Source of the DNA: Parcubacteria group bacterium
Lineage (GTDB): Bacteria > Patescibacteriota > Microgenomatia > UBA1400 > PJMF01
Length of the DNA: 64,000 bases
NCBI GenBank assembly: GCA_943350175.1
Contig: CALQZX010000001.1
Span: 21,818 to 85,817 of the forward strand
Direction: 5' to 3'
In this document: one piece after another, positions 25,486-43,095 of the stretch
Numbering within the stretch: position 1 is the stretch's first letter
How the letters are laid out: each line of letters starts with the position of its first letter
Notes under the pieces: model-generated
What the model was told of the DNA's origin: nothing
The model's database searches: none
Seen by the model: only the letters and a program-made list of their open reading frames with translations
Translations under genes and position numbers: made by a program

Positions 25486-26502
25486 TTATTCCTCTTCTTG
25501 TGAGTCGCTTCCATTTGAGTTGTCTTTAAAACTGCTGAATTTGCCATTGCGATTAAACAGATCCTTAAATCTTAAGTACTCAAGAAGGCGTAAGCCAGTA
25601 TATTTACCAATGGCTAAATTAATGATAGCTACACCAATTAAAGTCATTTCCGGTCTTAAAATGACAAATTTTTGTAGTGCTTCTGAGCCAATAATCAGTG
25701 AACATAAAACGGCGATGAGCAGTGTTTCAAAAGTGATTTGTAAGGCTTCTTTTTGACTACTAAAAAGCTGAGTTTCCATAAAATTTTCAGTTAAAAGAAT
25801 AATGATTAATAAAGGAAAGATGCTGATGTTGATAATCAGATTGACGTTGTAGACAGAACCAATTAGTAATAAGGCTAGGATGGCTATGGAAACACTCATT
25901 AGCAGCATGGCCGTTCTTGGTAGCATTGGTAGCTTAAGTTTTTTTAAAACAGGCCTGGTCATTAGGGCGGTGAATAGGACAGCCGCAAAAACAACCACTC
26001 CAGTAGCAATGCCAGTGGAAACAAAAGCTACAGATAGAACCGCTGGGATGTAAATGCCGAAGCCTTTTAATCCGATGACGTGTCTAGAGAAAGCAACTAA
26101 AGAGGCAATGATTGGAAAAATTAATAAAATAACAATAATATTAGCAGGCATACCGCTGCCGATGGCTTTACGAATTGCCTTTTGAACGATGTTGTTCCAA
26201 CTTAGAGCACCGATGGGATGTTCATCAAGAAAAGCAGCAAGAACGCTTTTTTTCTGACCACTAGTCTCGGTAATGTCTTGGTCAGTTTTTTGTTGCAATT
26301 TTTCTACCACCTCAGCTGATGGTGAGGAAAGCTTGGCGCTGTCCGTTGTTATGGCAGTTGCGCTGGCATCTTGTGTAGGTGAGAGAAACACAGTTTCACC
26401 AGCTGGTTTGACTTGAGCCTCAGCAAGACTTGATCTAACCAAAGTAATAATAGAAATGTGAAACAGAAAAAATAGTATTAAAGCGAGTTTATAAATTTTC
26501 AT
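25486..26502 (-). CDS. Polytopic membrane protein (about 7 TM) partner of the RimK-like ligase
   Basis: N-terminal signal/anchor and Ser/Thr/Ala-rich linker, then 6-7 hydrophobic helices, acidic C-terminal tail. Immediately upstream of, and nearly abutting, the ligase gene (3-nt gap). Confidence 0.4.
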   Translation of the reverse strand: MKIYKLALILFFLFHISIITLVRSSLAEAQVKPAGETVFLSPTQDASATAITTDSAKLSSPSAEVVEKLQQKTDQDITETSGQKKSVLAAFLDEHPIGALSWNNIVQKAIRKAIGSGMPANIIVILLIFPIIASLVAFSRHVIGLKGFGIYIPAVLSVAFVSTGIATGVVVFAAVLFTALMTRPVLKKLKLPMLPRTAMLLMSVSIAILALLLIGSVYNVNLIINISIFPLLIIILLTENFMETQLFSSQKEALQITFETLLIAVLCSLIIGSEALQKFVILRPEMTLIGVAIINLAIGKYTGLRLLEYLRFKDLFNRNGKFSSFKDNSNGSDSQEEE

Positions 26503-26885: not shown

Positions 26886-27100
26886 ATTTTTTAATCTCCA
26901 AACCTAAAAAAAGTCACGTTCGATGAAAATTTGTGATTTGTTTTAGTTGACAATCTTCTTCTCACTCGGTGAAGTCGCTGTCTATTTGCACTTTGCTAAT
27001 TTAAGATTTTTAGTCAGCTTCTTCAACGCACTTATTTTAAGTTTGGAGATTGAATTGTCTAAATGTAAGTGTAGCACTTAAATTAAATTTAATGAATTAT

Positions 27101-28477
27101 TTAGTCAATTTTCAAGAATTCTCCAGACCTCAATCTCGTGTGGTGTTTTTTGGCGAAGCGATGCGCTTCATCGCGCAATCTTTGCAACATTTTAAGGGTT
27201 GGATGGTCTGCTTGCAGTGGGATTATTTTTGTTTCGATTCCATCTTTCTTGTTTTCATCTTTTATAGAGACAACGAGTCTGTCTGGATTTTTTACCAAGC
27301 CAATGATAGGAATTTCCAAATCCCAAACTTTGGCAACCGCTCTAACTTGGCCTCTTCCTCCGTCAATCATAATTAAATCAGCACTTCCCCATTCTGGGTG
27401 TTTTTGCCTGCGCGTAAGGGCTTCCTGAAGCATTCCATAGTCATTGGGAGTGTCTAGGGATTTAATTTTAAAAAATTTATATTCGTTATTATCAATTTCG
27501 CCATCAGCCAGCACCACCATCGAGACCGTAGCCTGCTGTCCCATGGTATTACTGACATCGTAACCTTCAATGCGTTCAAATTTTTGTTGGCTTCCAACAA
27601 TGCCTTCTTGATGAAGGATATGTCGCAAGTGAACTAAAGCTTCTTTGGCTTCTTCTTGCCTGAAATTTGGCAAAATAATGTCTGATTTTAGTTTATATTG
27701 ACTGCTAGTGATTTCTTTTATAAGAGTGATTTTGTTTTTATTGATAAGGGCTTTTTCATAGGCTTCTACTTTTGAAAAAACTAACATTTCTTTTTCTAGT
27801 TCTTTTAGTAAACTATTTTTTTGGCCTTTGAGAAAAGCTATTAGCTGCTTGATGTCTTTTTGATATTCTTCTTTGCTAATTTTTTGGCAGCAAGCTCCGG
27901 AGCAAAGATCTAGATGGTGATAGAGGCAGGCTTTGCTTTTGCTGTCATTTTTTTGATTGCACCATTTAAAAATTGGTCGAATAATTTTAAGTACTTCATT
28001 TAATCGGTTGGAACTGGAAAATGGGCCAAAGAGAGCGAGTTTTTCTTGATAGATTTTTTTGCTTAGATCAGTTTTTCTTACACGCAGTATTTTTGGAAAA
28101 TCTTCTTTGCTAATCAAAATATAGATGTTGGATTTATCATCTTTTAAACGGCTGTTGAAATATGGTTGGTGAGCTTTGATGAGCTCGGCCTCGATTAATA
28201 AGGCTTCAATTTCGCTATCAAGTACCTGATGCTCCACTCTGTGGGCCAGCTCCGTCATTTTCTTGATTTTCCTTGAGAGCAGTGGAGATCTCTTGTAGTT
28301 GGCGACTCTCTTCTTCAAGTTTTTGGCCTTTCCTACGTAGAGAATTTGCGAGTTTTCGTCCAAGAAGGAATAAACTCCCGGCAACGAGGGTAACGACAAT
28401 AAATCCGCCTCCCAAGAAAATGATTTTATTGGGGTCGGCGATTTTGACTTTGATGCTGGGGCTGACTTCGAATTCAT
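27101..28477 (-). CDS. uvrC: Excinuclease ABC subunit C (short form lacking C-terminal HhH)
   Basis: GIY-YIG motif (PGVYSFLDENSQILYVGKAKNLKKRVANY), Cys-rich UvrB-interaction region, C-terminal endonuclease motif LQRLRDEAHRFA. The N-terminal 30 aa of the ORF are probably not translated (overlap with the upstream gene). Confidence 0.75.
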   Translation of the reverse strand: MNSKSAPASKSKSPTPIKSFSWEADLLSLPSLPGVYSFLDENSQILYVGKAKNLKKRVANYKRSPLLSRKIKKMTELAHRVEHQVLDSEIEALLIEAELIKAHQPYFNSRLKDDKSNIYILISKEDFPKILRVRKTDLSKKIYQEKLALFGPFSSSNRLNEVLKIIRPIFKWCNQKNDSKSKACLYHHLDLCSGACCQKISKEEYQKDIKQLIAFLKGQKNSLLKELEKEMLVFSKVEAYEKALINKNKITLIKEITSSQYKLKSDIILPNFRQEEAKEALVHLRHILHQEGIVGSQQKFERIEGYDVSNTMGQQATVSMVVLADGEIDNNEYKFFKIKSLDTPNDYGMLQEALTRRQKHPEWGSADLIMIDGGRGQVRAVAKVWDLEIPIIGLVKNPDRLVVSIKDENKKDGIETKIIPLQADHPTLKMLQRLRDEAHRFAKKHHTRLRSGEFLKID

Positions 28478-30266
28478 TACTTACTGATTGGCCTTCTTTA
28501 AGAATACTAGTGACTTTGATTTTCAATTTTTGGCCAATACTTCCGCTATTATTATAAACGGTGATTGGTAAAACAATTTTGGAAAAAGGTAATATCTTCT
28601 GAATTTTGCTATTTCGATCGAATGAAATTTCACCCTCTTCGCTAGTTATTTGAATGTCCGAAAAATACCAAACTCGGCCAGTTTTATTGAAAATTTGCAG
28701 GTCATAATTGCCTGGAATTTCCAAGCCATAAACCTTTTTACTAATCAGGGTAATTTCTAAATCTGGATTAATTTGAGCGAAGTCCTCTTTTGAGAATTCC
28801 AAATAAACTTTTTTATTTTTTTCATCTTCTTTGCCGATATAAGATCCAGCTGGATAAGGTAGGGTGCTGGAAATTCCATTAGTGGCAAAAGCGATGTGAT
28901 TGAGGTCAAAATTGTTAAAATAATCTATACCACCAGTAGTATCTTCCCAGGTAGGATCTACTTGGGTCCAAGCTTTCTTTTCATCATCATAATACTCTGG
29001 CCAAGTATGCAAAATATCTGCAGCTAAATTACTTGGACGCAATTCTTCATTGTTGGAATAAGCCATGCCAACCACTCTACGAGCTGGTATGTTTTTTTCT
29101 CTAGCCAAGGCGATAAATAGGTCTGTAAATTCTTGACAGGTGGCATCATTTTTGTTTGTTTCTTTGAGTGCTTCTACTGCACCCAAGCGCTCAAAGTTTT
29201 GATTGAGCGGTTTCTTGGTGTAATTTAGTTCTTTGACTGTGAAGTCATAAATACTTTTGATACTGTTTAAGTTTTTTGCTGCGTTGGCGATTTCTGGACT
29301 TTTGCTTTCCCAGAATTTTTGCTCATTAAGTTGCTCAGGCAAAACTTGACTTGAAGGAATCAGCGGATCTGCTGAAAGAGTCAGCATGACTTGTGCCAAA
29401 AGCTCCACGTTAAATGAATTATTGGCGGGGATTTCATAGGTGGCAATAAAATTGCCATCTTTGTCCTCCTTAATATTATTTGGCATTGGATCTAGGTTGA
29501 TGTAATAAATTTTTTGATGAGGTGTTTCTGGAGGCAAAGTGATTTGAGTTAGAGCATTTTGGCTAGTTGGGTTGTCTAGGTAGTAATTGAGTTTGAGGTC
29601 AAAAACTTGCTTGTTTCCAAAAATTGCTGAGATTGATTGATCCTTGAGATCACTGTAGGTAATGACGTTGTAATCGCCATCTTGTTTGAGGGAGAAATTG
29701 CTTGGATTGATGCGACTAGGAGTATCAAAAATGCTTGGAATTCTTAGCTCCAATTGGTAGCTTTGATACTGATAATGATCGGAGAGTTTTGGAATATTTA
29801 CTTCCAGAACTTTGCCACTGATGAGAGCGATGTCTGAATCGGTATAGCGAATAATCAGCTCATTGGTTTTGCCTTCTCCGACAACTTTTTCATCAAAAGT
29901 GACGCCGATGCTGGTTTGCCCCTTTTGTTTGCTAATTAAGCTTTCAATAGTTTTGCCGTTATTGCTGACTTCAACATTAGTGATATTGGTTGAGCTAATT
30001 ACAATTCCATATTTACTAATAAATAATTCTGGATTTTTATTTTTGATGATAAATTTTTGTTCGACGATGGTTTTGCCATTGGCAGTTACGGTGTAGGTGC
30101 TATGCAGAGAAATAGAGAAATTTTTGGAGCCGTCTGTAGTTGTAACTTCAGTTGTGTTTGAAGATTGGGCAAAGATTGTTTTTGGAGAAAAAACTAAAAA
30201 CAGAAATAAAGACAAAAATGCTTGGAAAAAAAATAATGCTTTTTTGATTCTATTTGAAAACATCAA
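28218..30266 (-). CDS. Transglutaminase-like domain surface protein (signal peptide, C-terminal TM anchor)
   Basis: Signal peptide; ATCQEFTDLFIALAREKNIPARRVVGMAYS is the transglutaminase-like Cys-core motif; C-terminal hydrophobic helix IIFLGGGFIVVTLVAGSLFLLG plus basic tail. Confidence 0.6.
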   Translation of the reverse strand: MMFSNRIKKALFFFQAFLSLFLFLVFSPKTIFAQSSNTTEVTTTDGSKNFSISLHSTYTVTANGKTIVEQKFIIKNKNPELFISKYGIVISSTNITNVEVSNNGKTIESLISKQKGQTSIGVTFDEKVVGEGKTNELIIRYTDSDIALISGKVLEVNIPKLSDHYQYQSYQLELRIPSIFDTPSRINPSNFSLKQDGDYNVITYSDLKDQSISAIFGNKQVFDLKLNYYLDNPTSQNALTQITLPPETPHQKIYYINLDPMPNNIKEDKDGNFIATYEIPANNSFNVELLAQVMLTLSADPLIPSSQVLPEQLNEQKFWESKSPEIANAAKNLNSIKSIYDFTVKELNYTKKPLNQNFERLGAVEALKETNKNDATCQEFTDLFIALAREKNIPARRVVGMAYSNNEELRPSNLAADILHTWPEYYDDEKKAWTQVDPTWEDTTGGIDYFNNFDLNHIAFATNGISSTLPYPAGSYIGKEDEKNKKVYLEFSKEDFAQINPDLEITLISKKVYGLEIPGNYDLQIFNKTGRVWYFSDIQITSEEGEISFDRNSKIQKILPFSKIVLPITVYNNSGSIGQKLKIKVTSILKEGQSVSNEFEVSPSIKVKIADPNKIIFLGGGFIVVTLVAGSLFLLGRKLANSLRRKGQKLEEESRQLQEISTALKENQENDGAGPQSGASGT

Positions 30267-30274
30267 AATCTATT

Positions 30275-33259
30275 TTACACGGTTTTTTGATTCAATTCTT
30301 CCTTCAAATAACTCCCCGTAAACGACTTCTCATTTTCCGCCACTTCAGCTGGAGTGCCGTAGGCGACGACTTCGCCACCATATTCTCCACCCTCTGGACC
30401 TAGATCAATAATCCAGTCGGCGTTTTTGATTACATCGAGATTATGTTCAATCAGAATAACGGTGTTGTCTTGTTCTACTAGCTGATTGAGAACGTTGAGT
30501 AGCTTTTGAATGTCGGCAAAATGTAATCCAGTGGTTGGTTCATCTAGTAAATAAACGACATGATCGTGAGATCTAGCACTGAGCTCTTTGGCCAATTTAA
30601 CTCTTTGAGCCTCGCCTCCGCTAAGAGTTGGAGCGGGTTGACCAAGCTTTAAGTAACCAAGACCAACTTCTTTGAGGGTGGCCATTTTTTGGCGAATGTT
30701 ACTGTGATTTTTGAAAAATTCATGAGCCTCATCGATACTCATCTCCAAAACTTGGGCAATATTTTTATCTTGGTATAAAACTTGCAAAGTTTCTTCGTTG
30801 TAACGTTGACCGTGACAGACGTCACATTGGACGTATACATCTGGTAAAAATTGCATCTCAATCTTAATCTGACCTTCACCCTGACAAACTTCACAACGAC
30901 CGCCTTTAACGTTAAAACTAAAGCGACCAATTTTGTAACCGCGCATGGCAGCATCTTTACTGCGCGCAAAAATTTGACGGATGTAGTCAAAAGCTTTGGT
31001 ATAAGTGGCTGGATTGGAGCGTGGAGTTTTGCCGATTGGGCTTTGATCAATCATGCTCAATCTTTTGACTTGCGGCGGAATAGAAATGCTTTCAAGCTCA
31101 GCCAGTTTGCTGTCGTAGGAATAGCCGAGTTGTTTGGCTAAGTGATTGTGTAGAACATTGTGCAAGAGGGTTGATTTTCCAGAGCCAGAAATTCCGGTGA
31201 TGCAAGTAAGAGCGTTGAGGGGAATTTCTACATCAATGTTTTTGAGGTTGTTATGATGGGCGCCGTGGACGGCAATTTTGGCTTTTTTCTTAACGTCTTT
31301 TTCTTTGATGCTTTCTCTAGTTATATCTTTTTTTCTGGCTAAATAGCGGCCAGTCAGAGAATTTTTGGCTTGCAAAATTTCCGCATAAGAACCTTCGAAA
31401 ACTACTTCTCCACCAGCTTCACCTGCTTTGGGACCAAAGTCGACGATGTGATCAGCGGCCATCATTAGGTCGCGATCATGCTCGACGACGATGACAGTAT
31501 TGCCTTTTTTCTTGAGTTCTTGGAGGGTTTCAATCAGACGACGATTGTCCCTTTGATGAAGACCAATGGTTGGTTCATCAAGAATATAAAGCACACCCGT
31601 CAGACCAGTACCAATTTGTGAGGCCAGGCGAATTCTTTGAGCTTCTCCACCTGCTAGAGTGGCTGCTTCGCGGGCAATAGTTAGATAATTAAGTCCAACA
31701 GCGGAGAGAAATTGCAGGCGGGTTTTAATCTCTTTAAGAATTGAGGCGGCGATTTGAACTTCTTTGGCAGATAGAACACCCTGCTTTGGATCGGCAATTT
31801 TTTCTGCCCATTTCAAAGCACGATCAATGGTTAGTTTGCTAAATTGGGCGATGTTTAATTTATCAACAGTGACGGATAGAATTTCTGCTTTGAGACGATC
31901 GCCATTGCAAATTGGACAAGTTTCTTTGTGCATGAACTGGCCAATTTCACGACGAATAAATTCACTGTCAGTTTCAGAATAACGACGTTCTAAATTTTTA
32001 ATAAAACCTTCAAATTTACTTTGATAACTAGTCATATTGCCGAAGCGGTTTTCACCGACGACGTCATAAATTTTTTCACTGCCAAATAGCAAAACATCTT
32101 GTAACTCTTTAGACATGTCTTCCCATTTGGTAAGACGAAAATCACTGCCAAAATCTTCCAAAACAATTTTGACTAAACGGGCGAACCAGCCTTCATTGGT
32201 CATCATTCTGGCAAATGGGATCATAGCGCCCTCGCTCATGGTTAGAGTTGGCGCGATAATTTTGTCAGCATTAATTTTTAGAATTGAACCGAGACCATTA
32301 CAAGCGGCACAAGCCCCCTCAGGTGAGTTAAAAGAAAAAGAGCGTGGCTCTAATTCTTTGAGTGAAATTCCACAATCACTGCAGGCGAGATTTTCACTAA
32401 AGAGGAAATCTTCTATATCTTGAGGATTCTCTGGAAAAGTAAAGCTAGAATCATTAACCCAGGTGACAATAGCTAGGCCATTAGCAAGTTTGAGAGCTTC
32501 TTCAAGAGATTGGTTGAGACGACTTTTGAGTCTAGTTAATTCAGTTTGATCATCAATCTGTACTTTGCTGATGACCAGACGGTCAATGACGGCATCAATG
32601 CTATGTTTATTGGTTTTGATGAGATTCAATTCTTGATCTAGGTTGTAGATTTGGCCGTCAATTCTGGCTTTGCTATAGCCTTTTTTGACTAAGTTTTCCA
32701 ATAGTTTGTCAAATTCGCCTTTTTTTTCTTTGACGACTGGTGACATGATCATTATTTTTTGTGGTTCTTTTTTGGAGATGACAAATTTATCTTCAATCTG
32801 CTTAAAAATTTGGCTAATGATTTGATCAATGCTCTGGGTGCTAATTTCTTTGCCACAATTATGACAATGAGGGTGGCCTACTCTAGCAAAAAGCAAACGG
32901 CAGTAATCATAAATTTCTGTAATCGTGCCCACGGTAGAGCGTGGATTATGAGAAGTGGTTTTTTGATCAATGGAAATAGCTGGCGACAAGCCGTCGATTT
33001 GATCGACGTCTGGTTTGTTCATTACTCCAAGAAATTGGCGAGCATAAGAGCTAAGAGATTCGACGTAGCGACGTTGACCTTCGGCATATAAAGTATCGAA
33101 GGCTAGAGAGCTTTTACCACTACCAGAGAGACCAGTAAAAACAATTAATTTATTCTTTTCTAATTCTAAATTAATGTTTTTAAGATTGTGCTCGCGGGCA
33201 CCAGTGATTTTGATAATATTTCCCATTGACATGAGGGGAATATTATAGCCTAAAACCAA
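30275..33259 (-). CDS. uvrA: Excinuclease ABC subunit A
   Basis: Two ABC ATPase modules (GLSGSGKSS; GISGSGKST), LSGGE signatures, zinc-finger Cys clusters; typical UvrA N-terminus IKITGAREHNLKNI. Confidence 0.92.
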   Translation of the reverse strand: MVLGYNIPLMSMGNIIKITGAREHNLKNINLELEKNKLIVFTGLSGSGKSSLAFDTLYAEGQRRYVESLSSYARQFLGVMNKPDVDQIDGLSPAISIDQKTTSHNPRSTVGTITEIYDYCRLLFARVGHPHCHNCGKEISTQSIDQIISQIFKQIEDKFVISKKEPQKIMIMSPVVKEKKGEFDKLLENLVKKGYSKARIDGQIYNLDQELNLIKTNKHSIDAVIDRLVISKVQIDDQTELTRLKSRLNQSLEEALKLANGLAIVTWVNDSSFTFPENPQDIEDFLFSENLACSDCGISLKELEPRSFSFNSPEGACAACNGLGSILKINADKIIAPTLTMSEGAMIPFARMMTNEGWFARLVKIVLEDFGSDFRLTKWEDMSKELQDVLLFGSEKIYDVVGENRFGNMTSYQSKFEGFIKNLERRYSETDSEFIRREIGQFMHKETCPICNGDRLKAEILSVTVDKLNIAQFSKLTIDRALKWAEKIADPKQGVLSAKEVQIAASILKEIKTRLQFLSAVGLNYLTIAREAATLAGGEAQRIRLASQIGTGLTGVLYILDEPTIGLHQRDNRRLIETLQELKKKGNTVIVVEHDRDLMMAADHIVDFGPKAGEAGGEVVFEGSYAEILQAKNSLTGRYLARKKDITRESIKEKDVKKKAKIAVHGAHHNNLKNIDVEIPLNALTCITGISGSGKSTLLHNVLHNHLAKQLGYSYDSKLAELESISIPPQVKRLSMIDQSPIGKTPRSNPATYTKAFDYIRQIFARSKDAAMRGYKIGRFSFNVKGGRCEVCQGEGQIKIEMQFLPDVYVQCDVCHGQRYNEETLQVLYQDKNIAQVLEMSIDEAHEFFKNHSNIRQKMATLKEVGLGYLKLGQPAPTLSGGEAQRVKLAKELSARSHDHVVYLLDEPTTGLHFADIQKLLNVLNQLVEQDNTVILIEHNLDVIKNADWIIDLGPEGGEYGGEVVAYGTPAEVAENEKSFTGSYLKEELNQKTV

Positions 33260-33267
33260 GCAAATTT

Positions 33268-33981
33268 CTAGTTAAGAGGAAGCTTCGGTTCTGTTGGCTT
33301 GTCTTTCTTTTGATTTTTGAGAATATAGATCAAAAATAAAAGCGCAGCAACAAAAGAGCCAATCATTAAGCCAATTAATAAGTTATTATTTATTTTTTTA
33401 GGAACAGCTGCTTCCTCAACTTCTGCAGGGACTTGACTAATACTTGGAGTGGCTTCTTCCTCTGTTTGTTCTGTTATAGCTTCGACTGGAATGATTGTCC
33501 CGATTTTAACCATCAGGCTTTCTCCTATGGTTAATACATTTTGGTCGCTGTCGACTGATCCAGCCAGAGTTTCTTTTTTATCAAAACTCAACTTAACTTC
33601 GCCATCTCCAGCATGCTTGAAAGAAACCTTGAGCAATTCGATGTTTTCTTTGGTACTCCAGCCCTTGCCAAGCTCTAGGCTAGTTAGAGAAATAAAGATA
33701 CTGTTGCCCTCGACTTTTTTGGAAATTTCCTGAACTGGCATTTTGGAGCTAATTGCTACGCTGAGATCTTTTATTTCTCCAGTCACATCAATTTTAAGCT
33801 GTAACGAGTTGACTTCCAAGCCTTGAGTGTTTAAATAAACCGGTACAGCAACCAAGCTATCTTTTGGTAGTTGCTCTACTTTTTCAAAGTTTAGCATTGC
33901 TGCTGGCTCTGCCGCCATGATTGGGCTTTTCAGAGAAGTAAGACATAGTAAAGTAAATAGACCAATGAGAAGTTTTTTCAT
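33268..33981 (-). CDS. Membrane-anchored cohesin-like domain protein
   Basis: Signal peptide; AVPVYLNTQGLEVNSLQLKIDVTGEIKDL fits the cohesin beta-sandwich start pattern; C-terminal NNNLLIGLMIGSFVAALLFLIYIL TM plus KNQKKDK tail. Paralogue of 36251..37003. Confidence 0.45.
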   Translation of the reverse strand: MKKLLIGLFTLLCLTSLKSPIMAAEPAAMLNFEKVEQLPKDSLVAVPVYLNTQGLEVNSLQLKIDVTGEIKDLSVAISSKMPVQEISKKVEGNSIFISLTSLELGKGWSTKENIELLKVSFKHAGDGEVKLSFDKKETLAGSVDSDQNVLTIGESLMVKIGTIIPVEAITEQTEEEATPSISQVPAEVEEAAVPKKINNNLLIGLMIGSFVAALLFLIYILKNQKKDKPTEPKLPLN

Positions 33982-33988
33982 TTTTTCC

Positions 33989-36211
33989 TTAATATGCTCT
34001 AAATTCTATATTAATAAGGCTCTTAAGTACTAACGAATAGTCAGCGATATCAACTGTTTTGTCTTTGTTAACATCGGCTTTCGCATTGTTAGTGAAGAGA
34101 TTTTTAATAACAACTGATAGATCTAATACGTTAATAAATCCGTCTTCATTTAAGTCATAAGCCAATGGAGTTGTTTTGACGCTACAATAACCCAGGCTTA
34201 TGATTTTGACTCCTTCTTGGGCTGTTGTTTGAGGAGCTTGTTTTTTAATACAAACTTCTCCTGCAGAACAATTACTATCTGAAGAACATGGCTTGTCACA
34301 TGTTTGTTTAAGGATTGGAGCAGAGCAGCCAAGTTTGTCTGGGTTGGAAATACTTCTCGATTGAACTCCATAATTACATTCTGACCAGATTGAATAATCA
34401 TATTGGCAAGAAGTAATTTGTTCACAGACATAGGTTGGACAAAAAGTTTTGGAATTAGGGTCTGTTTTAACTGATTGAATTGTCCTTATAGTGCCATTTT
34501 TACAATCGGGCACTGCGCAACTGATTGGAGTTGGGGTTTTGGTAGGTACGCTTGGTGTTGGTGTAGGAGTTTTGGTTGGAGTTGTAGTGGCAATTTGGCA
34601 AGCACTCATGTTACTAGTCCAGGTGCCACCGGCTTTTGGACAGCAATAGGTAACGTCTCCGCAAGCCTCTACTCTTCCAGCTAGGTTACACAAGCTTTCT
34701 TGAGCGCTTCCGTTAGCTTCTGGAGGATTGCAGCTACGCAACACACCATCGGTTCCAGGACACTGTTCCTTACAGACGACAGGTGTTGGAGTTGATGAAA
34801 TTGGGGCAGCTTTGCAATATTTTGCCGGCATTACCTGAGGACAAAATTTTCCTTCAGGGCACGCTTTCATAGGAGGTTGATAACAGCTGTAGCCACTAAA
34901 ACAATCTGCATTTGTTGAACAATTGATGCCCTCAGCCTGTCTACAAAAAGGAGCTGATGCACAGGCCATCGGACGTCCATTGGCGTCTTTAGAACATCCT
35001 CCTGCTGGAGTGCTAGAGCAAACATAACCACTTTGACAGTTGGAGTTTGTTTTACAACTGGTTGCTGTTGGAGTGACATTATCGATTGGAGTTGGAGTAG
35101 CTGTAATTGGTTTTTCTTTACAATATTTAGCTGGTGCTTGTGCGGACATTTTGCACATTGCTCCCTCTGGGCAAGTTGGCATTGGAGGTTGATAACAGTA
35201 TTGACCAGTTGGACAAACATCGTCAGACTTGCATCCAAGTATTTCAGTCACAGCTTCCATCTTAATGGCGATAATTAGAGGTGAAGGGGTGTTTAGGCTA
35301 TCTTGACCAGTTTTGTATAAAGTAGCTTTTGAAAAAGATGGATCTAAGTTTACAACGACATTACCCGCTGGTTCTCCAGATTTAGAAGTTTGTTTAGCCA
35401 CAAATTCAATTTTACCGAGAAGATAATCACTATTGTTACTATTAAAAGGAACACTCGTGTTCGTTAGAGTCCAAGCGAGTAAAACCTCTTTACTTAGAGA
35501 TACTTCATTTTTTACCAAAGAAAGTATCGGTTTTGTTGCCATTCTGCTATTTTCCATTTTTTGGTTTTCTTCAAAGCTGATTCCACTGTTACCAGTCACA
35601 GAAACTGCAGTAGGAATATCCTTAGCATTGCTATTCGCGCAATATTTGGCAGGCATTACTTGAGAGCACATTGCTCCCTTTGGACAAGCGGGCATAGGAG
35701 GTTGGTAACAAATTTGGCCGTTAGTACAGTTGGTATTACTCTGGCAAGTTTTTCCAGTTGGAGTTGGTGTCGAAGGCGGTGTCGAAGTTGGGGTCGAAGT
35801 TGGGGTCGAAGTTGGAGGTGTTTGAGCATCTTGCGCTGGTTTAAAACTAATGCTGTCAACTGAACTAAGACTATTTTGATCAAAAACAATTTTAGCTTGC
35901 AAGGCGTCGATATTGCTAGAGCCGGTGTTAACCAAAACATCAACGTAACAAGTTTGGCCAGCCATACAGTCAATATTTTTTTGTAATCTGATGTTGATTA
36001 GTCCGTTGGCTACCGAAGCTTGATTGCGAGTATCTTGTTTTTGACCAAGCAATATAAAAGAACTAATTGCTCCAACAGCGAGAAGCATGATGAGCGCCAC
36101 AGCAGCTAAGATCTTATTCTTATTTTTTTTGCTTCTAAAGGTTGGAACTTGAGGTGAGCTGTTTTGTTCTAAGGTGTATTGATTAATTTGATTTTCTATG
36201 GAATCTGACAT
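33989..36211 (-). CDS. Cys-rich repeat surface protein with C-terminal type-I-like dockerin
   Basis: N-terminal TM; cohesin-like N-terminal segment; TPTS linker; 3-4 copies of about 40-aa Cys module (C..G..CYQPPMP.CP.GAMC....PAKYC); C-terminal DLNEDGFINVLDLSVVIKNL + DVNKDKTVDIADYSLVLKSL, i.e. two canonical dockerin Ca-binding segments. Confidence 0.6.
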   Translation of the reverse strand: MSDSIENQINQYTLEQNSSPQVPTFRSKKNKNKILAAVALIMLLAVGAISSFILLGQKQDTRNQASVANGLINIRLQKNIDCMAGQTCYVDVLVNTGSSNIDALQAKIVFDQNSLSSVDSISFKPAQDAQTPPTSTPTSTPTSTPPSTPTPTGKTCQSNTNCTNGQICYQPPMPACPKGAMCSQVMPAKYCANSNAKDIPTAVSVTGNSGISFEENQKMENSRMATKPILSLVKNEVSLSKEVLLAWTLTNTSVPFNSNNSDYLLGKIEFVAKQTSKSGEPAGNVVVNLDPSFSKATLYKTGQDSLNTPSPLIIAIKMEAVTEILGCKSDDVCPTGQYCYQPPMPTCPEGAMCKMSAQAPAKYCKEKPITATPTPIDNVTPTATSCKTNSNCQSGYVCSSTPAGGCSKDANGRPMACASAPFCRQAEGINCSTNADCFSGYSCYQPPMKACPEGKFCPQVMPAKYCKAAPISSTPTPVVCKEQCPGTDGVLRSCNPPEANGSAQESLCNLAGRVEACGDVTYCCPKAGGTWTSNMSACQIATTTPTKTPTPTPSVPTKTPTPISCAVPDCKNGTIRTIQSVKTDPNSKTFCPTYVCEQITSCQYDYSIWSECNYGVQSRSISNPDKLGCSAPILKQTCDKPCSSDSNCSAGEVCIKKQAPQTTAQEGVKIISLGYCSVKTTPLAYDLNEDGFINVLDLSVVIKNLFTNNAKADVNKDKTVDIADYSLVLKSLINIEFRAY

Positions 36212-36250
36212 TCTTTCATTTAATCATGAAAATAAGCTGAGAATCAAGGG

Positions 36251-37003
36251 TTAGTATGCGAGAGGTAACTCTTTCTTTTTTTTGCCTTTTAAAATATAAA
36301 GCATGGTCATAGCAACAGCGATAAATGAGCTAGTAATCGTGCCAACTAATAGGTTGTTATTTACTCTGTCAATTTTTTTATCATCATTAGCTATTATTTC
36401 TTTTTGAATTTGCTTTACTTCTGTTGGAACGATGGTTCCAACTTTTATTGAAACATCATCTCCGATAGTTATGACGTTTTCATCTGTTGCACTTGACTGC
36501 GCTGAAGTTTCTTTTTGATCGAAACTCAACCAAACTTCACCATCTTTTTCTTTGGTAAAAGTAACAGTTGCAAGTTCTGTATTCTGAGAGGTGCTCCATC
36601 CTGTATTTGCTTGCGAACTTGATAGAGATAGTAAAATATTTTTGTCGTCAATTTTCTCTGCTATTTTTTTAACTGGCATTTTTTGATTAATTTTTATGCC
36701 AAGATTACTGACTTCGCCAGTGACATTGATTTTTAAGTCTAGTGAATCTATCTCTATTTCTTGAGTATTTAAATAGATTGGCACAGAAACGAGGGTGTTT
36801 TTTGGGGCAGGAGCTATTTTTTTAAAACTAATGATGGCTCCACCGTTAAATGCTGCTTGCTGGCGATTGTCTTGTTTTTGATTGATTAAAATAAGAGAGC
36901 TGATTATTCCTAGGAGTAAAAAAAAGACCAGAATTACTCCAGCCAAAGCATTGTTTTTGTTTTTTCTATTTTTACTTTTCATAATGATTAAGTGTGTTAA
37001 CAT
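36251..37003 (-). CDS. Membrane-anchored cohesin-like domain protein (paralogue of 33268..33981)
   Basis: N-terminal TM; VSVPIYLNTQEIEIDSLDLKINVTGEVSNL; same overall layout and C-terminal NNNLLVGTITSSFIAVAMTMLYIL TM plus KGKKKKELPLAY tail. Confidence 0.45.
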   Translation of the reverse strand: MLTHLIIMKSKNRKNKNNALAGVILVFFLLLGIISSLILINQKQDNRQQAAFNGGAIISFKKIAPAPKNTLVSVPIYLNTQEIEIDSLDLKINVTGEVSNLGIKINQKMPVKKIAEKIDDKNILLSLSSSQANTGWSTSQNTELATVTFTKEKDGEVWLSFDQKETSAQSSATDENVITIGDDVSIKVGTIVPTEVKQIQKEIIANDDKKIDRVNNNLLVGTITSSFIAVAMTMLYILKGKKKKELPLAY

Positions 37004-37022
37004 TTAATCATATAAGAGGTTT

Positions 37023-39137
37023 CTAGACATCCTCAATCTCTTTAATTTTGTCTCTAATGATGACAGCTAGTTCAAAATCTTGATCGTTGGCAGCTTTTTT
37101 CATTTGTGTATTTAGTTTTTTAATCAAACCTTGCTTTTCACCTGGAGTCAACTCTTCTGGATTGATAGCCATGAGATTGAGTTGTTCTTTATTGGAGATT
37201 TTAAGAAGAATTCCTTTTCTATTTTCCTTATCTTGCTCGTCTTTGGTTTTGCGTTGCATTAATTTTTCACGAATTGGTTTGTTGATGCCAATTGGAGTAA
37301 TGCCGTTCTGCGAATTAAATTTTTCTTGAGTTTGACGGCGGCGCGTAGTTTCATTAATGGCAAAATCCATTGATTTCGTTATTCTGTCTGCATAAAGAAT
37401 GGCTAGACCTTCGACATGGCGCGCCGCTCTACCCATGGTCTGCACTAGAGAAGTTTTGGAGCGCAGAAAGCCTTCTTTATCAGCGTCAAGGATGGCAACT
37501 AAGCTAACTTCAGGTAGATCGAGACCTTCACGCAGCAAGTTAATGCCAACAAGAACATCATATTTACCATTACGGAGATCATCCAAAATGTCGCTACGAT
37601 CCAGAGTTTCCACATCTGAATGCAGATAAGCAACTGATGGATAACTCACTTCCTCTTTACTGAGAAATTTTTTGGCCAATTTCTCAATTTTTTCGCGATC
37701 ATTTAGATAGTCGCTCAGCGCCTCGGCCATTTTTTTGGTCAGTGTGGTGACCAAAACTCTTTGGCCGAGTTTTTTTCTTTTGATAATTTCTAGAGTAAGA
37801 TCTTCTACTTGGTTGCCGGTTGGACGAATTTCAATTTTTGGATCAAGTAGTCCAGTTGGACGAATTAGCTGCTCGACGACTCTATTTTTGCTTCTCTCCA
37901 ATTCCCATTCATTCGGAGTAGCGCTGACATATATAGATTGTTGCTTTCTTTGTAAAAACTCATGAAGTTGCAGTGGTCTGTTATCGATGGCACTTGGCAA
38001 ACGGAAACCATAATTGATCAAAGTTTCTTTGCGGGAGCGATCGCCAAAATACATACCTTTTATTTGAGGCAAACTGATGTGACTTTCATCAATGATGGTC
38101 AAAAATGAGTCGGCGCCGAATTTTTCTTGGTTATATTTGAAGTAGTCAAGCAAAGTATAAGGAGCTTCGCCTTCTTGGCGGCCATCGAAATAACGTGAAT
38201 AGTTTTCAATGCCATTAGTTGAGCCGAACTCTTCAATCATTTCCAGATCGTAATTAACTTTGTGTTCTAGACGATAGGCTTCAACGCTTTTGCCGGCCTT
38301 TTTGAGCTCTTCTACTCTCTCTGCCATGTCTTTGCGAATAGTGAGAATAGTATCTTTTTGACTTTTGGTTTCTACTACATAGTGTTTGGCTGGATAGATC
38401 AGGGCCATTTTATTCTTGTAGAATTTATTTTTTTCTTTTTCAACAACGGCACCTGAAACAGGATCAATATCTTTAATACTGATGATTTTATCTTCCAGAG
38501 TTTCAATACGAATCGCAGTATCCTGATAAGCTGGCCAGAGCTGTATAACATCGCCGCGCAGACGGTAGCTGCCGCGAAGCAGATCGGTATTACTTCTTTC
38601 GTACTGCAGATTACTAAGTTGTAGTAATAAGCTTTCGCGTTTAATTAGTTCACCCTCGACGATTTCTAGAACGAAACGGCTGTAATCAACCGGAGAACCG
38701 AGTGAATAGATACAGGAAACTGAGGCAACGATAATAACATCTTGGCGAGTCATCAGATGAGTGGTGGCGGCCAAACGCAACTTATCAATTTCTTCATTAA
38801 TAGTGGCTTCTTTTTCAATATAAGTGTCACTGCTTGGCAAATATGCTTCTGGCTGATAGTAATCGTAGTAAGAAACGAAGTAAGAAACAGCGTTTTCTGG
38901 AAAGAAATCGCGTAATTCTTGATAAAGTTGAGCGGCTAGGGTTTTGTTGTGAGCAATGACTAAAGTTGGTTTTTGAGTTCTTTCAATGACATTGGCGATA
39001 GTGAACGTTTTTCCAGAGCCGGTCACACCAAGCAAAACCTGATCTTCGACTTTTTCATTCAAGCCACTCACCAAAGCCTCAATGGCTTGAGGTTGGTCTC
39101 CGGTTGGCTGGTATTCTGAATGGAGTTTAAATTGCAT
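37023..39137 (-). CDS. uvrB: Excinuclease ABC subunit B
   Basis: Helicase motifs (GVTGSGKTFT; DESH), beta-hairpin region, C-terminal UVR domain (ELAVIIRDKIKEIE). Confidence 0.92.
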   Translation of the reverse strand: MQFKLHSEYQPTGDQPQAIEALVSGLNEKVEDQVLLGVTGSGKTFTIANVIERTQKPTLVIAHNKTLAAQLYQELRDFFPENAVSYFVSYYDYYQPEAYLPSSDTYIEKEATINEEIDKLRLAATTHLMTRQDVIIVASVSCIYSLGSPVDYSRFVLEIVEGELIKRESLLLQLSNLQYERSNTDLLRGSYRLRGDVIQLWPAYQDTAIRIETLEDKIISIKDIDPVSGAVVEKEKNKFYKNKMALIYPAKHYVVETKSQKDTILTIRKDMAERVEELKKAGKSVEAYRLEHKVNYDLEMIEEFGSTNGIENYSRYFDGRQEGEAPYTLLDYFKYNQEKFGADSFLTIIDESHISLPQIKGMYFGDRSRKETLINYGFRLPSAIDNRPLQLHEFLQRKQQSIYVSATPNEWELERSKNRVVEQLIRPTGLLDPKIEIRPTGNQVEDLTLEIIKRKKLGQRVLVTTLTKKMAEALSDYLNDREKIEKLAKKFLSKEEVSYPSVAYLHSDVETLDRSDILDDLRNGKYDVLVGINLLREGLDLPEVSLVAILDADKEGFLRSKTSLVQTMGRAARHVEGLAILYADRITKSMDFAINETTRRRQTQEKFNSQNGITPIGINKPIREKLMQRKTKDEQDKENRKGILLKISNKEQLNLMAINPEELTPGEKQGLIKKLNTQMKKAANDQDFELAVIIRDKIKEIEDV

Positions 39138-39257
39138 TTTGATGTTTTTAGTCTTTTTTGGACTACTTATTATACCTTGTTTTTACTCCTGTGCGCCCTA
39201 TATACACAAAGCCTGGACTTTTGGTCAAGATTTACATATAATTCGCGGTAGTTTCAA

Positions 39258-39331
39258 GTGCTGGTAGCTCAGCTGGATAGAGCAACTGCCTTCTAAGCAG
39301 TAGGTCGTGGGTCCGAGTCCCACCCAGCATA
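39258..39331 (+). tRNA. tRNA-Arg (anticodon TCT)
   Basis: GTGCTGGTAGCTCAGCTGGATAGAGCAACTGCCTTCTAAGCAGTAGGTCGTGGGTCCGAGTCCCACCCAGCATA; anticodon loop CTTCTAA. Confidence 0.8.
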
Positions 39332-39383
39332 CTTTTGATTGGAATGCCTGAGTCGATTCGATTGATGGGCAATTAAAAAAAAT

Positions 39384-39460
39384 GGTGGCCATAGCTCAGT
39401 TGGTTTAGAGCGCTGCTCTGTGAAAGCAGAGGTCGCGGGTCCGAGTCCCGTTGGCCACCC
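39384..39460 (+). tRNA. tRNA-His (anticodon GTG) with extra 5' G(-1)
   Basis: GGTGGCCATAGCTCAGTTGGTTTAGAGCGCTGCTCTGTGAAAGCAGAGGTCGCGGGTCCGAGTCCCGTTGGCCACCC; very similar to E. coli tRNA-His. Confidence 0.8.
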
Positions 39461-39494
39461 AAAAAGATTGATTTATCGATTAAAATAAGATTTT

Positions 39495-39890
39495 ATGGCA
39501 AGAATGGAAACTGCAGAAGAGATTAGTTCTAAGTTAGCTAAAGAAGCAGAGATTGCTGTAGCCACTGCAAATCAAAGAGCTTCTGATATTGAAAGAGAAG
39601 CTATATCTAAAAACCCAAGAGCTAATGAAGTTGGTCGTTACTATGCACAAATTCATAAACTTGTTTATAGTCTTTTAGCTCCAGATCCAAGGCATTTGGC
39701 CGTGATTTATGGAAAAGAATATACACCAACAGCAGAAGAAGTTGCGAAATATGAAAGAAACTACGTCGCTAATTTAGAAGCGGCTGTTGCTGAAGCTTTT
39801 CGCAGAATTCCTCCTCCAAATGATCTCGTAAATGAAGCACGCGTTGTAGAACTCCTGTTAGATGGAAATCATAGAATTATTGCTGAATAG
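39495..39890 (+). CDS. Hypothetical protein
   Basis: 131-aa ORF immediately downstream of the tRNA pair. No motif recognised. Confidence 0.3.
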   Translation: MARMETAEEISSKLAKEAEIAVATANQRASDIEREAISKNPRANEVGRYYAQIHKLVYSLLAPDPRHLAVIYGKEYTPTAEEVAKYERNYVANLEAAVAEAFRRIPPPNDLVNEARVVELLLDGNHRIIAE

Positions 39891-40344
39891 TTTTTATATG
39901 TCAGAAAATAAAAATTCTCATGAAGATGCAGAAAGAAGTCGGCTTGAACATTGGGCTAGGGAAAATAGACCATTTCATGAGGAAAAACAAAAGAATGTGA
40001 CTAGTTCGTTGAGAAATTGGTTCGCTTTTGACACCGGCGACGGAGTGATCACTCATGGTGTAAATACTTGCGTTGCCATTGTTGGAACAGAACCTGGTTT
40101 TATCGGTCACATTGCTGCTGATCGTAAGATTCCTGATGCAGAATTTCGTAGTGTTGTATTTGAGCTAATTAAATCAGGTGTTAAGACAGTTTATATTTTT
40201 GGTATGAATGATGACTTGTTTGCTGACGTCCATGATTATTTGAAAAAAAATGGCTTCATCATTGAAAGTCATCGTAATTATGATCAAAGTTCATCTTTCA
40301 CGGTTCAAGTCAAAAATGGCAAAATTAATTATTTTAATAAATAA
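39862..40344 (+). CDS. Hypothetical protein
   Basis: 160-aa ORF (probable start MSENKNSHE at about 39898). No motif recognised. Confidence 0.3.
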   Translation: MEIIELLLNSFYMSENKNSHEDAERSRLEHWARENRPFHEEKQKNVTSSLRNWFAFDTGDGVITHGVNTCVAIVGTEPGFIGHIAADRKIPDAEFRSVVFELIKSGVKTVYIFGMNDDLFADVHDYLKKNGFIIESHRNYDQSSSFTVQVKNGKINYFNK

Positions 40345-42273: not shown

Positions 42274-43095
42274 ATGTCAGAATTGCCAGGATTTAGTCCT
42301 TCTGGTGCTGCAAATCAAGCGGTTGGACCTGCTGTCTCAAATGAGAAGATAGTAAAGCTCCCTTCAGAAAAAGAAGACAATAAAAACAAAACCTACAAGA
42401 TTGCGGGCATTATTTTGGCAGTTCTAATTATTGGAGTCATTGCGACTTTAATTTTTTTCGAGAATAGCCAAGATACTAGAAAATCAGCAGCTGCTTGTGT
42501 TGAACAGTGTCCAGCTAGTGGCGGAAAGCTTTTACGTGATTGTAGTTCTCCAGAATCTCCAGGAAATTCATCCGACAGTCTTTGCAATGCTGTTGGCAGA
42601 ATAGAATCATGTGGAGGGGTAAATTTTTGCTGTCCAAAAGTTGGAGGTGTATGGACTAAAACTATGACTGCCTGTGCAATTGCTACACCAACAGCTACTC
42701 CTTCTGCATCTTTGAGCCCTTCAGTGACAGCCACTCCTTCTGCCACAATTACCCTTTCGCCAACAGCCACTCCTTCTGCCACAATTACCCTTTCGCCAAC
42801 AGCCACGGTTTCTCCAGTGGCAACCTCGACTCCTGCTCCGACCAACTGCAATAATGATTTGGATTGTGATGGGATTCCAAATGTGGAAGATCCTGATGAT
42901 GATAACGATGGAACTCTTGATGTAAACGAATCTACTCCTACTCCAACTAAAACTCCAACGCCAACCAAAACTCCTACCCCGACTATCTCAAGTAATACCC
43001 TGCCTGCATCTGGGTCAGTGGAAACAACCTTTGTGCTGATGATTGCCTCACTTTTTTCGATAACTCTCGGAGTGGCGATTAAATATAAAAATTAA
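42274..43095 (+). CDS. Surface protein with Cys-rich module shared with the 740-aa dockerin protein, TSP3-like Ca-binding motif and C-terminal anchor
   Basis: N-terminal TM; CVEQCPASGGKLLRDCSSPESPGNSSDSLCNAVGRIESCGGVNFCCPKVGGVWTKTMTACAIAT parallels CKEQCPGTDGVLRSCNPPEANGSAQESLCNLAGRVEACGDVTYCCPKAGGTWTSNMSACQIAT in 33989..36211. DCDGIPNVEDPDDDNDGTLD; C-terminal LPASG + hydrophobic helix + KYKN. Confidence 0.5.
   Translation: MSELPGFSPSGAANQAVGPAVSNEKIVKLPSEKEDNKNKTYKIAGIILAVLIIGVIATLIFFENSQDTRKSAAACVEQCPASGGKLLRDCSSPESPGNSSDSLCNAVGRIESCGGVNFCCPKVGGVWTKTMTACAIATPTATPSASLSPSVTATPSATITLSPTATPSATITLSPTATVSPVATSTPAPTNCNNDLDCDGIPNVEDPDDDNDGTLDVNESTPTPTKTPTPTKTPTPTISSNTLPASGSVETTFVLMIASLFSITLGVAIKYKN
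42728..42799 (+). repeat. Perfect 36-bp tandem duplication (x2) inside the surface-protein gene
   Basis: cagccactccttctgccacaattaccctttcgccaa occurs twice back-to-back (encodes ATPSATITLSPT x2). A third diverged unit follows. Confidence 0.85.

Follow-up and report, generated by a model that had tools for sequence, protein, structure and literature searches.

The three genes described here lie between uvrB and uvrA in a 64,000-nucleotide (nt) stretch of DNA from a Parcubacteria group bacterium (contig CALQZX010000001.1, positions 21,818 to 85,817), which is called the window below and to which all coordinates refer. The middle gene encodes a protein of 740 amino acids (aa) ending in a dockerin, and its two neighbours encode shorter proteins, flankA (237 aa) and flankB (250 aa). 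The locus encodes three cohesin-fold modules and one dockerin, and is probably a self-contained, non-enzymatic cohesin-dockerin surface cassette. The features of the cassette and its surroundings are listed in Table 1.

The three open reading frames (ORFs) and their uvrA and uvrB flanks had been reported in an initial annotation of the sequence, and the ORF list, the ENA gene calls and Pfam agree with it; the ENA source record, a metagenome contig of 168 kb, contains the identical three gene calls, all without annotation. All genes of the string uvrB/flankB/740-aa gene/flankA/uvrA are co-directional, with intergenic gaps of 19, 39, 7 and 8 nt, the start of flankA being 7 nt past the stop of the dockerin gene. 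FlankA and flankB are 42% identical (E 7e-60), i.e. they are paralogs, as had been supposed. Scanning positions 27000-39600 for promoters and terminators yielded counts at the level of shuffled sequence, which give no sign for or against a separate transcription unit. A recent mobile insertion between uvrA and uvrB was ruled out by the unremarkable GC content and by the synteny kept in relatives down to about 50% identity. No other cohesin or dockerin ORF was detected within the 64-kb window in a hidden Markov model (HMM) search. Taking into account that the dockerin scores above the Pfam gathering cutoff and that conservation of the genes extends over more than 10 independent contigs (see below), the features of the locus are far beyond chance.

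Table 1. Features of the cassette and neighbouring genes in the window
Feature	Residues	Position (nt)	Strand	Basis
flankA, gene of the 237-aa membrane-anchored cohesin		33268-33981	-	ORF list; ENA record agrees
740-aa dockerin protein gene (N-terminal anchor, split cohesin-fold domain, Cys-rich and Pro/Thr-rich stalk, C-terminal dockerin)		33989-36211	-	ORF list; ENA record agrees
flankB, gene of the 250-aa paralog, optional cassette member		36251-37003	-	ORF list; ENA record agrees
740-aa: dockerin, two calcium-binding loops (D686-D697, D713-D724), a helix after each, 7-residue connector	684-735	34007-34162	-	Pfam PF00404
740-aa: hydrophilic N-tail (invariant M-S-D), Lys-rich RSKKNKNK, one transmembrane (TM) helix (31-58)	1-58	36038-36211	-	hydropathy scan, invariant columns
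740-aa: post-TM motif QKQDTRNQASVA	57-68	36008-36043	-	family alignment, identity by region
740-aa: first half of cohesin-fold domain (strands 1-4)	69-127	35831-36007	-	
740-aa: hypervariable insert in the cohesin beta4-beta5 loop, Pro/Thr linker and one 6-Cys CYQPPM module	128-228	35528-35830	-	
740-aa: second half of cohesin-fold domain (strands 5-9), including invariant FSKATLYKTGQDSLNTP	229-318	35258-35527	-	
740-aa: disulfide-rich stalk of CYQPPM, 8-Cys and W-S-x-C modules with Pro/Thr linkers	319-683	34163-35257	-	Cys map
740-aa: W-S-x-C...G-x-Q-x-R module	602-642	34283-34405	-	family alignment
flankA: Sec-type signal peptide, putative cleavage near IMA/AE	1-24	33910-33981	-	hydrophobic segment 4-23, by eye
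flankA: cohesin-fold nine-stranded beta-sandwich	28-165	33487-33900	-	
flankA: acidic variable disordered linker (~30 aa), invariant NNLL motif, TM helix (197-224), basic tail KNQKKDKPTEPKLPLN	166-237	33271-33486	-	
flankB: cohesin-fold domain	53-195	36419-36847	-	
Q-D-x-R-x-x-A sites		36008-36043; 36848-36876; 42469-42495	-; -; +	
uvrA		30275-33259	-	Pfam families on gene calls
uvrB		37023-39137	-	Pfam families on gene calls
uvrC, mechanical ORF		27101-28477	-	
682-aa transglutaminase-core protein		28218-30266	-	
Genes listed with the transglutaminase-core cluster		25486-26502; 24197-25483; 23214-24179; 21969-23222	-; -; -; +	
Small ORFs upstream of uvrB		39495-39890; 39862-40344	+; +	
273-aa protein		42274-43095	+	

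The dockerin of the 740-aa protein

The C-terminal end of the 740-aa protein, which reads ...DLNEDGFINVLDLSVVIKNLFTNNAKADVNKDKTVDIADYSLVLKSLINIEFRAY, was matched by the Pfam family PF00404 (Dockerin_1) over residues 685-732 and profile positions 2-56 of 57, with 31.8 bits against a gathering cutoff of 22.9 (E 1.6e-7). The C-terminal module is thus a dockerin, as initially proposed, and the two segments quoted for it are present, each being 20 residues long and not 22. The predicted calcium ligands at loop positions 1, 3, 5, 9 and 12 are D686, N688, D690, N694 and D697 in the first loop and D713, N715, D717, D721 and D724 in the second, and all ten positions are invariant across the 11 sequences of the family alignment, every one of which begins with MSD. 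Mean identity of the dockerin in this alignment is 76%, as against 52% for the whole protein, and among thirteen regions scored only the motif following the TM helix was higher. The homologs P0017-P0026 carry a precomputed PF00404 assignment, and the closest sequence match in the PDB was 2jnk/2ozn of Clostridium perfringens (E 0.006, one gap).

The AlphaFold2 model of the full-length protein, which had a shallow alignment and in which calcium was not modelled, has helices at 698-706 and 723-739, where they are expected, and a predicted local distance difference test score (pLDDT) below 50 for residues 679-725. Because the model is not confident, the dockerin fold is inferred from sequence. When 241 million metagenome records were scanned for its pattern, this type of dockerin was found only in the cassette protein. 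A homology search with the 65-aa dockerin alone returned 2 candidates and is uninformative on other clients, the query being too short for the word index. The result of the pattern scan, combined with the lack of a further cohesin or dockerin ORF in the window, is weak evidence for a dedicated pair.

Cohesin-fold domains and membrane anchors

The AlphaFold model of flankA (16-sequence alignment) has a beta-sandwich core comprising residues 28-165 with a pLDDT of about 90. The top 29 Foldseek matches of this domain were all cohesins, and its nine-stranded beta-sandwich is closer in superposition to solved cohesins than to other folds. When a 26-sequence profile was compared with all PDB sequences, the two best matches were to cohesin 3 of Ruminococcus flavefaciens ScaB (E 0.047 and 0.064), in register over strands 1-3; a narrower profile found nothing relevant among PDB sequences, and there was no NCBIfam match for the cohesin-fold proteins. 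Judged from the model, the flank domains are cohesins by fold, with marginal sequence homology. The three cohesin-fold modules of the window are mutually homologous.

In the C-terminal part of the flankA model pLDDT is below 50 at residues 172-198, and a helix follows at 199-222. Lipoprotein anchoring of flankA was ruled out, the Cys of its signal peptide not being conserved. FlankB has an N-terminal signal anchor and a QKQDNRQQA motif, in which it resembles the 740-aa protein, and C-terminal NNNLL, TM helix and basic tail as found in flankA; in the hydropathy scan it has two TM segments, one at each end. The motifs quoted in the initial annotation were all found: VPVYLNTQGLEVNSLQLKIDV and VPIYLNTQEIEIDSLDLKINV (the VP(V/I)YLNTQ strand), and NNNLL(I/V)G with a hydrophobic helix and a basic tail behind it. 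The N-terminal signal or anchor ascribed to both flanking proteins was found to be a signal peptide in flankA, whereas flankB has an uncleaved-looking signal anchor resembling that of the 740-aa protein. None of the three cassette proteins has an S-layer homology (SLH) domain or an LPXTG motif, and each contains one cohesin-fold module. These data show that in both flankA and flankB a single cohesin-fold module is tethered, via a flexible linker, to a C-terminal TM helix in the membrane.

The 740-aa protein, regarded initially as the cargo, contains a cohesin-fold domain of its own, split by an insert of about 100 aa, together with an N-terminal membrane anchor. The flank family was aligned by hhalign to residues 44-322 across a large gap (probability 86.6%, E 4.5e-6), and an HMM built from the cohesin region of the 740-aa protein found flankB at E 3e-6. 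Mean identity to the window protein is 56-61% in the cohesin halves, 20% in residues 480-560 and 10% in the insert (128-228), where there are many indels and pLDDT is below 50. The distant relatives L056, L059 and L061 are shorter, and the flank-cohesin HMM aligns contiguously across the insertion point in them, so that there is no room for such an insert in these proteins.

The topology of the 740-aa protein was drawn from the positive-inside rule, by which its N-terminus is predicted to be cytoplasmic and to form a type II signal anchor. By the same rule, all folded modules of the three proteins should be outside the membrane; the marks of this topology are the TM and signal segments, the positive-inside tails, the even number of cysteines in the 740-aa protein (46) and the Pro/Thr linkers. 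No stretch of the 740-aa protein is conserved more strongly than the motif following the TM helix, with a mean identity of 92% where the full-length protein has 52%; the motif is a candidate processing or sorting site.

The same motif, with the pattern Q-D-x-R-x-x-A, occurs about 1-5 residues past the N-terminal TM helix in exactly three window proteins, namely the 740-aa protein, flankB and the unrelated 273-aa protein (Table 1), and also in P0056, P0060, P0066, L056, L057 and L061. It is unlike a canonical signal peptidase I site, and a processing or sorting signal specific to the lineage is a possible reading. We know of no description of this motif.

The Cys-rich stalk

Three 6-Cys modules containing CYQPPM are present in the 740-aa protein (residues 156-191, 327-364 and 431-466). 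An 8-Cys module (residues 480-541) is shared with the 273-aa protein encoded farther along the window (BLASTP E 2e-22). No glycoside hydrolase, carbohydrate-binding module (CBM) or other Pfam domain was found above threshold in the passenger region, whether the whole protein or pieces of it were searched. The Cys map and the lack of a Pfam enzyme domain agree with the initial description of the cargo as carrying Cys-rich CYQPPM modules in place of a glycoside hydrolase. Comparison of the CYQPPM modules with known Cys-rich families gave only sub-threshold matches (Dickkopf_N, Lustrin_cystein, carboxypeptidase inhibitor and Myxo_Cys_RPT).

Near the dockerin, the pattern C-x-Y-x-Y-S-x-W-S-x-C-x-Y-G-x-Q-x-R...C of residues 602-642 is invariant in the family, and the module is recognisable in the distant homologs L056 and L057 (CEYQYSDWSDCKNGSQTRKV; CTYTYQEWGPCVNGLRTRIA). 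Its reading as a thrombospondin type-1 repeat (TSR) is a resemblance by eye: Pfam TSP_1 did not match even the isolated segment. The one family listed that has a TSR-like fold, PTN_MK_C, gave E 0.62.

A conserved pair of genes

The flank family is very narrow: the indexed search gave 16 proteins, and 1.84 billion cluster representatives, searched exhaustively with an HMM, gave 32. Among 185,579 species genomes, 3 contained a relative, namely an uncultured bin and metagenome-assembled genomes of Candidatus Pacebacteria and Candidatus Microgenomatus. The two named lineages support the assignment to the candidate phyla radiation (CPR), which had been suspected initially.

In the window, as in L001, L005, L006, L007 and L009, the dockerin gene is located directly upstream of the anchored-cohesin gene. 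The same pair was found in L056, L057, L059, L060 and L061, whose cohesin-fold proteins share no more than 17-28% identity with flankA in the domain, so that the adjacency is observed in the window and in 10 further loci. In the distant loci the gap between the two genes is 3-21 nt, and the upstream gene matches Dockerin_1. L056, L057, L059 and L061 had enough flanking sequence for inspection of the surroundings, L060 being a short contig, and these four neighbourhoods were otherwise unrelated (TPR/Obg; ABC transporter/uvrA; PRTase/ProRS; HTH/YceI-MutL). According to local HMMs, the four complete upstream proteins have an N-terminal TM helix, a cohesin-like N-domain (E 1e-10 to 1e-38), a Cys-rich middle and a dockerin with two complete calcium loops; the Q-D-x-R-x-x-A motif is present in three of the four. 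Of the upstream protein of L060 only the C-terminal 57 residues are on the contig, and these match the dockerin HMM with one complete loop. Linkage of the pair in distant relatives, in four unrelated contexts, would be hard to explain otherwise than by shared function.

Close relatives have the gene order uvrB - (flankB) - dockerin protein - flankA - uvrA - transglutaminase-like - uvrC. FlankB was found only in L005, P0016, P0036 and P0041, and is absent in L001, L006, L007 and L056-L061. Of the three-gene block, the dockerin gene/flankA pair is retained, whereas flankB is missing from most relatives. Judged from these gene orders, the conserved unit is a two-gene pair, [TM-cohesin-Cys-rich-dockerin] followed by [signal-cohesin-TM]. 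Since distant relatives hold the pair in other neighbourhoods, the position among the uvr genes is incidental to the cassette. In the close subfamily, identity to the window sequence is 67-92% for the dockerin and 49-93% for the flankA cohesin domain, the dockerin being the less diverged of the two.

Possible function of the cassette

The recurrence of the dockerin/anchored-cohesin gene pair in distant relatives makes a self-assembling surface structure probable. The odds somewhat favour binding of the dockerin to at least one of the locus-encoded cohesins at the cell surface, for which the Archaeoglobus fulgidus pair and Ruminococcus bromii Amy4 (see below) are precedents. The dockerin would plug, in a calcium-dependent manner, into the cohesin of the membrane-anchored flankA, and flankB and the N-terminal cohesin of another 740-aa molecule may be further binding partners. 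In this way the distal end of the stalk would be fastened to the cell surface, or stalks would be linked to one another, and the outcome would be a non-covalent surface scaffold, stabilised by calcium and disulfides, which displays variable Cys-rich modules. Most plausibly such a scaffold would serve contact with other cells or surfaces; by analogy, a role in host attachment is plausible.

Several observations speak against this interpretation. The Pfam Cohesin model PF00963 did not match any of the 3 window proteins, the 16 family members or the 10 distant members at E values up to 10, and the best profile match to a solved cohesin had an E value of only 0.047. For these reasons the cohesin identity is based on the fold, as indicated by Foldseek. 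The dockerin has low confidence in the full-length AlphaFold2 model (pLDDT below 50). Conservation in the canonical dockerin-binding sheet (8-3-6-5) is 0.77 compared to 0.69 in the other sheet, a difference too small to argue from. Furthermore, both partners seem to be anchored in the same membrane, and the geometry and purpose of such a cis interaction are puzzling.

If the two kinds of module were not partners, the dockerin would bind a cohesin encoded elsewhere, a host-cell molecule or a glycan, and the cohesin folds would be spacers or would bind other ligands. No cohesin partner is known for many non-cellulosomal dockerins, host glycans have been proposed as the target of the essential dockerin protein SEML1_0315 of Southlakia (PMC10633639), and the cohesin call made here is a call by fold. 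However, the genes are adjacent, with gaps of 3-21 nt, in relatives of 17-28% identity and in four unrelated contexts, and the slower divergence of the dockerin than of the flankA cohesin domain in the close subfamily also argues against separate partners, which we therefore regard as unlikely. The same low likelihood applies to a pilus-like arrangement in which cleavage at the invariant QDTRNQA/S motif frees the 740-aa protein of its N-terminal anchor and its dockerin enters the N-terminal cohesin of the next subunit, building a head-to-tail fibre with flankA as the basal socket. Such a fibre would be consistent with the N-terminal cohesin-fold domain, which is retained in all dockerin proteins of the family, distant members included, with the 92% identity of the post-TM motif, which fits a processing site, with Amy4 of Ruminococcus bromii, where a cohesin binds the dockerin of its own protein type, and with the general parallel to sortase pili, which also combine a basal anchor and a repeating subunit. 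On the other hand, inspection by eye does not show a canonical signal peptidase I site in the motif, which has N at -3 and lies about 10 residues past the helix, and the stalk may simply loop back. It is distinctly improbable that the locus specifies a new surface appendage, i.e. a calcium-dependent, non-covalent polymer of subunits released at Q-D-x-R-x-x-A and standing on a basal cohesin socket, by which CPR cells would contact their hosts with hypervariable Cys-rich modules; if true, this fibre would be functionally analogous to sortase pili and would have no dedicated assembly enzyme.

The cassette was initially seen as a scaffoldin pair with a dockerin-bearing cargo, resembling a miniature cellulosome. 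The anchored cohesins and the dockerin are indeed there, but the cargo has its own cohesin and its own anchor, and the likeness to cellulosomes holds at the level of modules, not for the whole, which lacks enzymes, has a single cohesin in each protein and is anchored by TM helices instead of SLH or sortase. In a true mini-cellulosome the anchored cohesins would present several dockerin enzymes encoded elsewhere in the genome, with the 740-aa protein as an adaptor scaffoldin. The module grammar is like that of the anchoring and adaptor scaffoldins of cellulosomes and of the R. bromii amylosome. Nevertheless, the absence of CAZyme and CBM domains from the locus, the lack of any further dockerin ORF in the 64 kb, the restriction of this dockerin type to the cassette protein among the 241 million metagenome records and the single cohesin per protein make this very unlikely. 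A connection with nucleotide-excision repair might be suggested by the location inside the uvrB-uvrA-uvrC string, where the genes are co-directional, separated by 7-39 nt and without promoter or terminator signals above chance, and where their position is conserved in the close subfamily. The export and TM signals and other extracytoplasmic hallmarks of all three proteins speak against this possibility, and it is effectively refuted by the distant relatives that have the pair away from any uvr gene; on the latter ground, placement between uvrA and uvrB does not belong to the system.

Relation to known cohesin-dockerin systems

Adjacent cohesin/dockerin pairs and proteins combining a cohesin with a dockerin are already known, and non-cellulosomal cohesin and dockerin modules occur in all three domains of life (Peer et al. 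2009, as cited in PMC10066038). In Archaeoglobus fulgidus the dockerin of ORF2375 (residues 432-506) and the cohesin of the adjacent ORF2376 (residues 29-162; structure 2XDH) bind strongly and specifically (PMC9705933). The cassette resembles this pair in having adjacent genes, a C-terminal dockerin with a single-cohesin neighbour and no enzyme module, in a non-cellulolytic organism. It differs in that its cohesin is on a C-terminal TM helix, its dockerin protein is anchored N-terminally and has a long Cys-rich stalk, its cohesins are missed by the Pfam model, the host belongs to the CPR and the binding is a predicted one. ORF2375 presumably also carries a cohesin.

The cohesin of R. bromii Amy4 recognises Amy4's own dockerin, which allows multimers to form (PMC4611034). 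As in Amy4 and in adaptor scaffoldins (R. flavefaciens ScaA/ScaB, Acetivibrio cellulolyticus ScaB), a cohesin and a dockerin are on one chain in the cassette, and a separate cell-anchored cohesin is predicted to receive the dockerin. Whereas those proteins carry or recruit carbohydrate-active enzymes and use sortase or SLH anchoring, the cassette is enzyme-free, depends on TM helices and has one cohesin split by an insert of about 100 aa. The modules of C. perfringens NagH and NagJ (2OZN, 2JNK, 2VO8, 2JH2) are, like those of the cassette, non-cellulosomal, with a compact dockerin and a short connector between its segments; they join secreted glycoside hydrolases, in contrast to the cassette, which has no catalytic domain and tethers both partners to the membrane.

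The dockerin protein SEML1_0315 is essential in Southlakia epibionticum, an epibiotic Saccharibacterium (PMC10633639), and giant ORFs with nine dockerins occur in Omnitrophota, where dockerins were proposed to be adhesins (PMC10066038). These are likewise dockerins on non-cellulolytic surface proteins of host-dependent nanobacteria. Unlike in the two organisms, for which no cohesin partner was reported, a putative partner with a cohesin fold is encoded by the next gene of the cassette, and the pairing is conserved. In the literature searched we found no description of a cohesin-dockerin pair in the CPR. The new features are the C-terminal TM anchoring of a single cohesin, its N-terminally anchored cohesin-stalk-dockerin partner, the insert-split cohesin, cohesins that escape profile annotation, the non-enzymatic Cys-rich passenger and the conservation of the cassette in CPR bacteria.

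For CPR/Patescibacteria outside the Saccharibacteria, there is hardly any knowledge of surface organisation and of the means of holding on to hosts. The cassette is a small testable protein-protein system with one dockerin, two or three cohesin-fold sockets and a variable disulfide-rich stalk. Standard annotation leaves its diverged cohesins as hypothetical proteins, and profile-based annotation under-counts cohesins in CPR genomes. If the predicted binding is true, cohesin-dockerin biology would extend to a membrane-tethered, enzyme-free architecture, and the cassette would be a candidate CPR adhesion or surface-scaffold module, the parts of which can be expressed in Escherichia coli, as well as a source of new orthogonal cohesin-dockerin pairs for designer scaffolds.

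Neighbouring genes

The 273-aa protein had no Pfam match. Its N-terminus has a Lys-rich stretch and a TM segment followed by SQDTRKSAA, as in the 740-aa protein, and its 8-Cys module shares 56% identity with residues 480-541 of the latter (E 2e-22). Within the 740-aa family this module is present only in the window protein and its closest relative, an indication of recent module shuffling. The 8-Cys module is followed by Pro/Thr linkers, an acidic CNNDLDCDGIPNVEDPDDDNDG stretch, LPASG, a hydrophobic helix and KYKN at the C-terminus; by eye, this end looks like an LPXTG-type sortase signal.

Between uvrA and uvrC, and syntenic in relatives, lies the gene of the transglutaminase-core protein, which has a signal sequence and a C-terminal TM segment. 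Beyond uvrC there are genes for a 7TM_transglut protein, a sugar-transfer-associated ATP-grasp protein, a MATCAP-like peptidase and a second ATP-grasp protein. The transglutaminase/ATP-grasp genes are a separate, conserved envelope-modification cluster. Action of a transglutaminase-like enzyme on the Gln-rich post-TM motif would be pure speculation.

The mechanical ORF of uvrA starts with TTG and has 994 aa compared to 983 aa in public records, and that of uvrC has 458 aa compared to about 385 aa and overlaps the transglutaminase-like gene by 260 nt. The true starts of uvrA and uvrC are probably further downstream. Just upstream of uvrB, on the opposite strand, there are two overlapping small ORFs of 131 and 160 aa with no Pfam match, at which the ENA record has similar genes of 128 and 160 aa.

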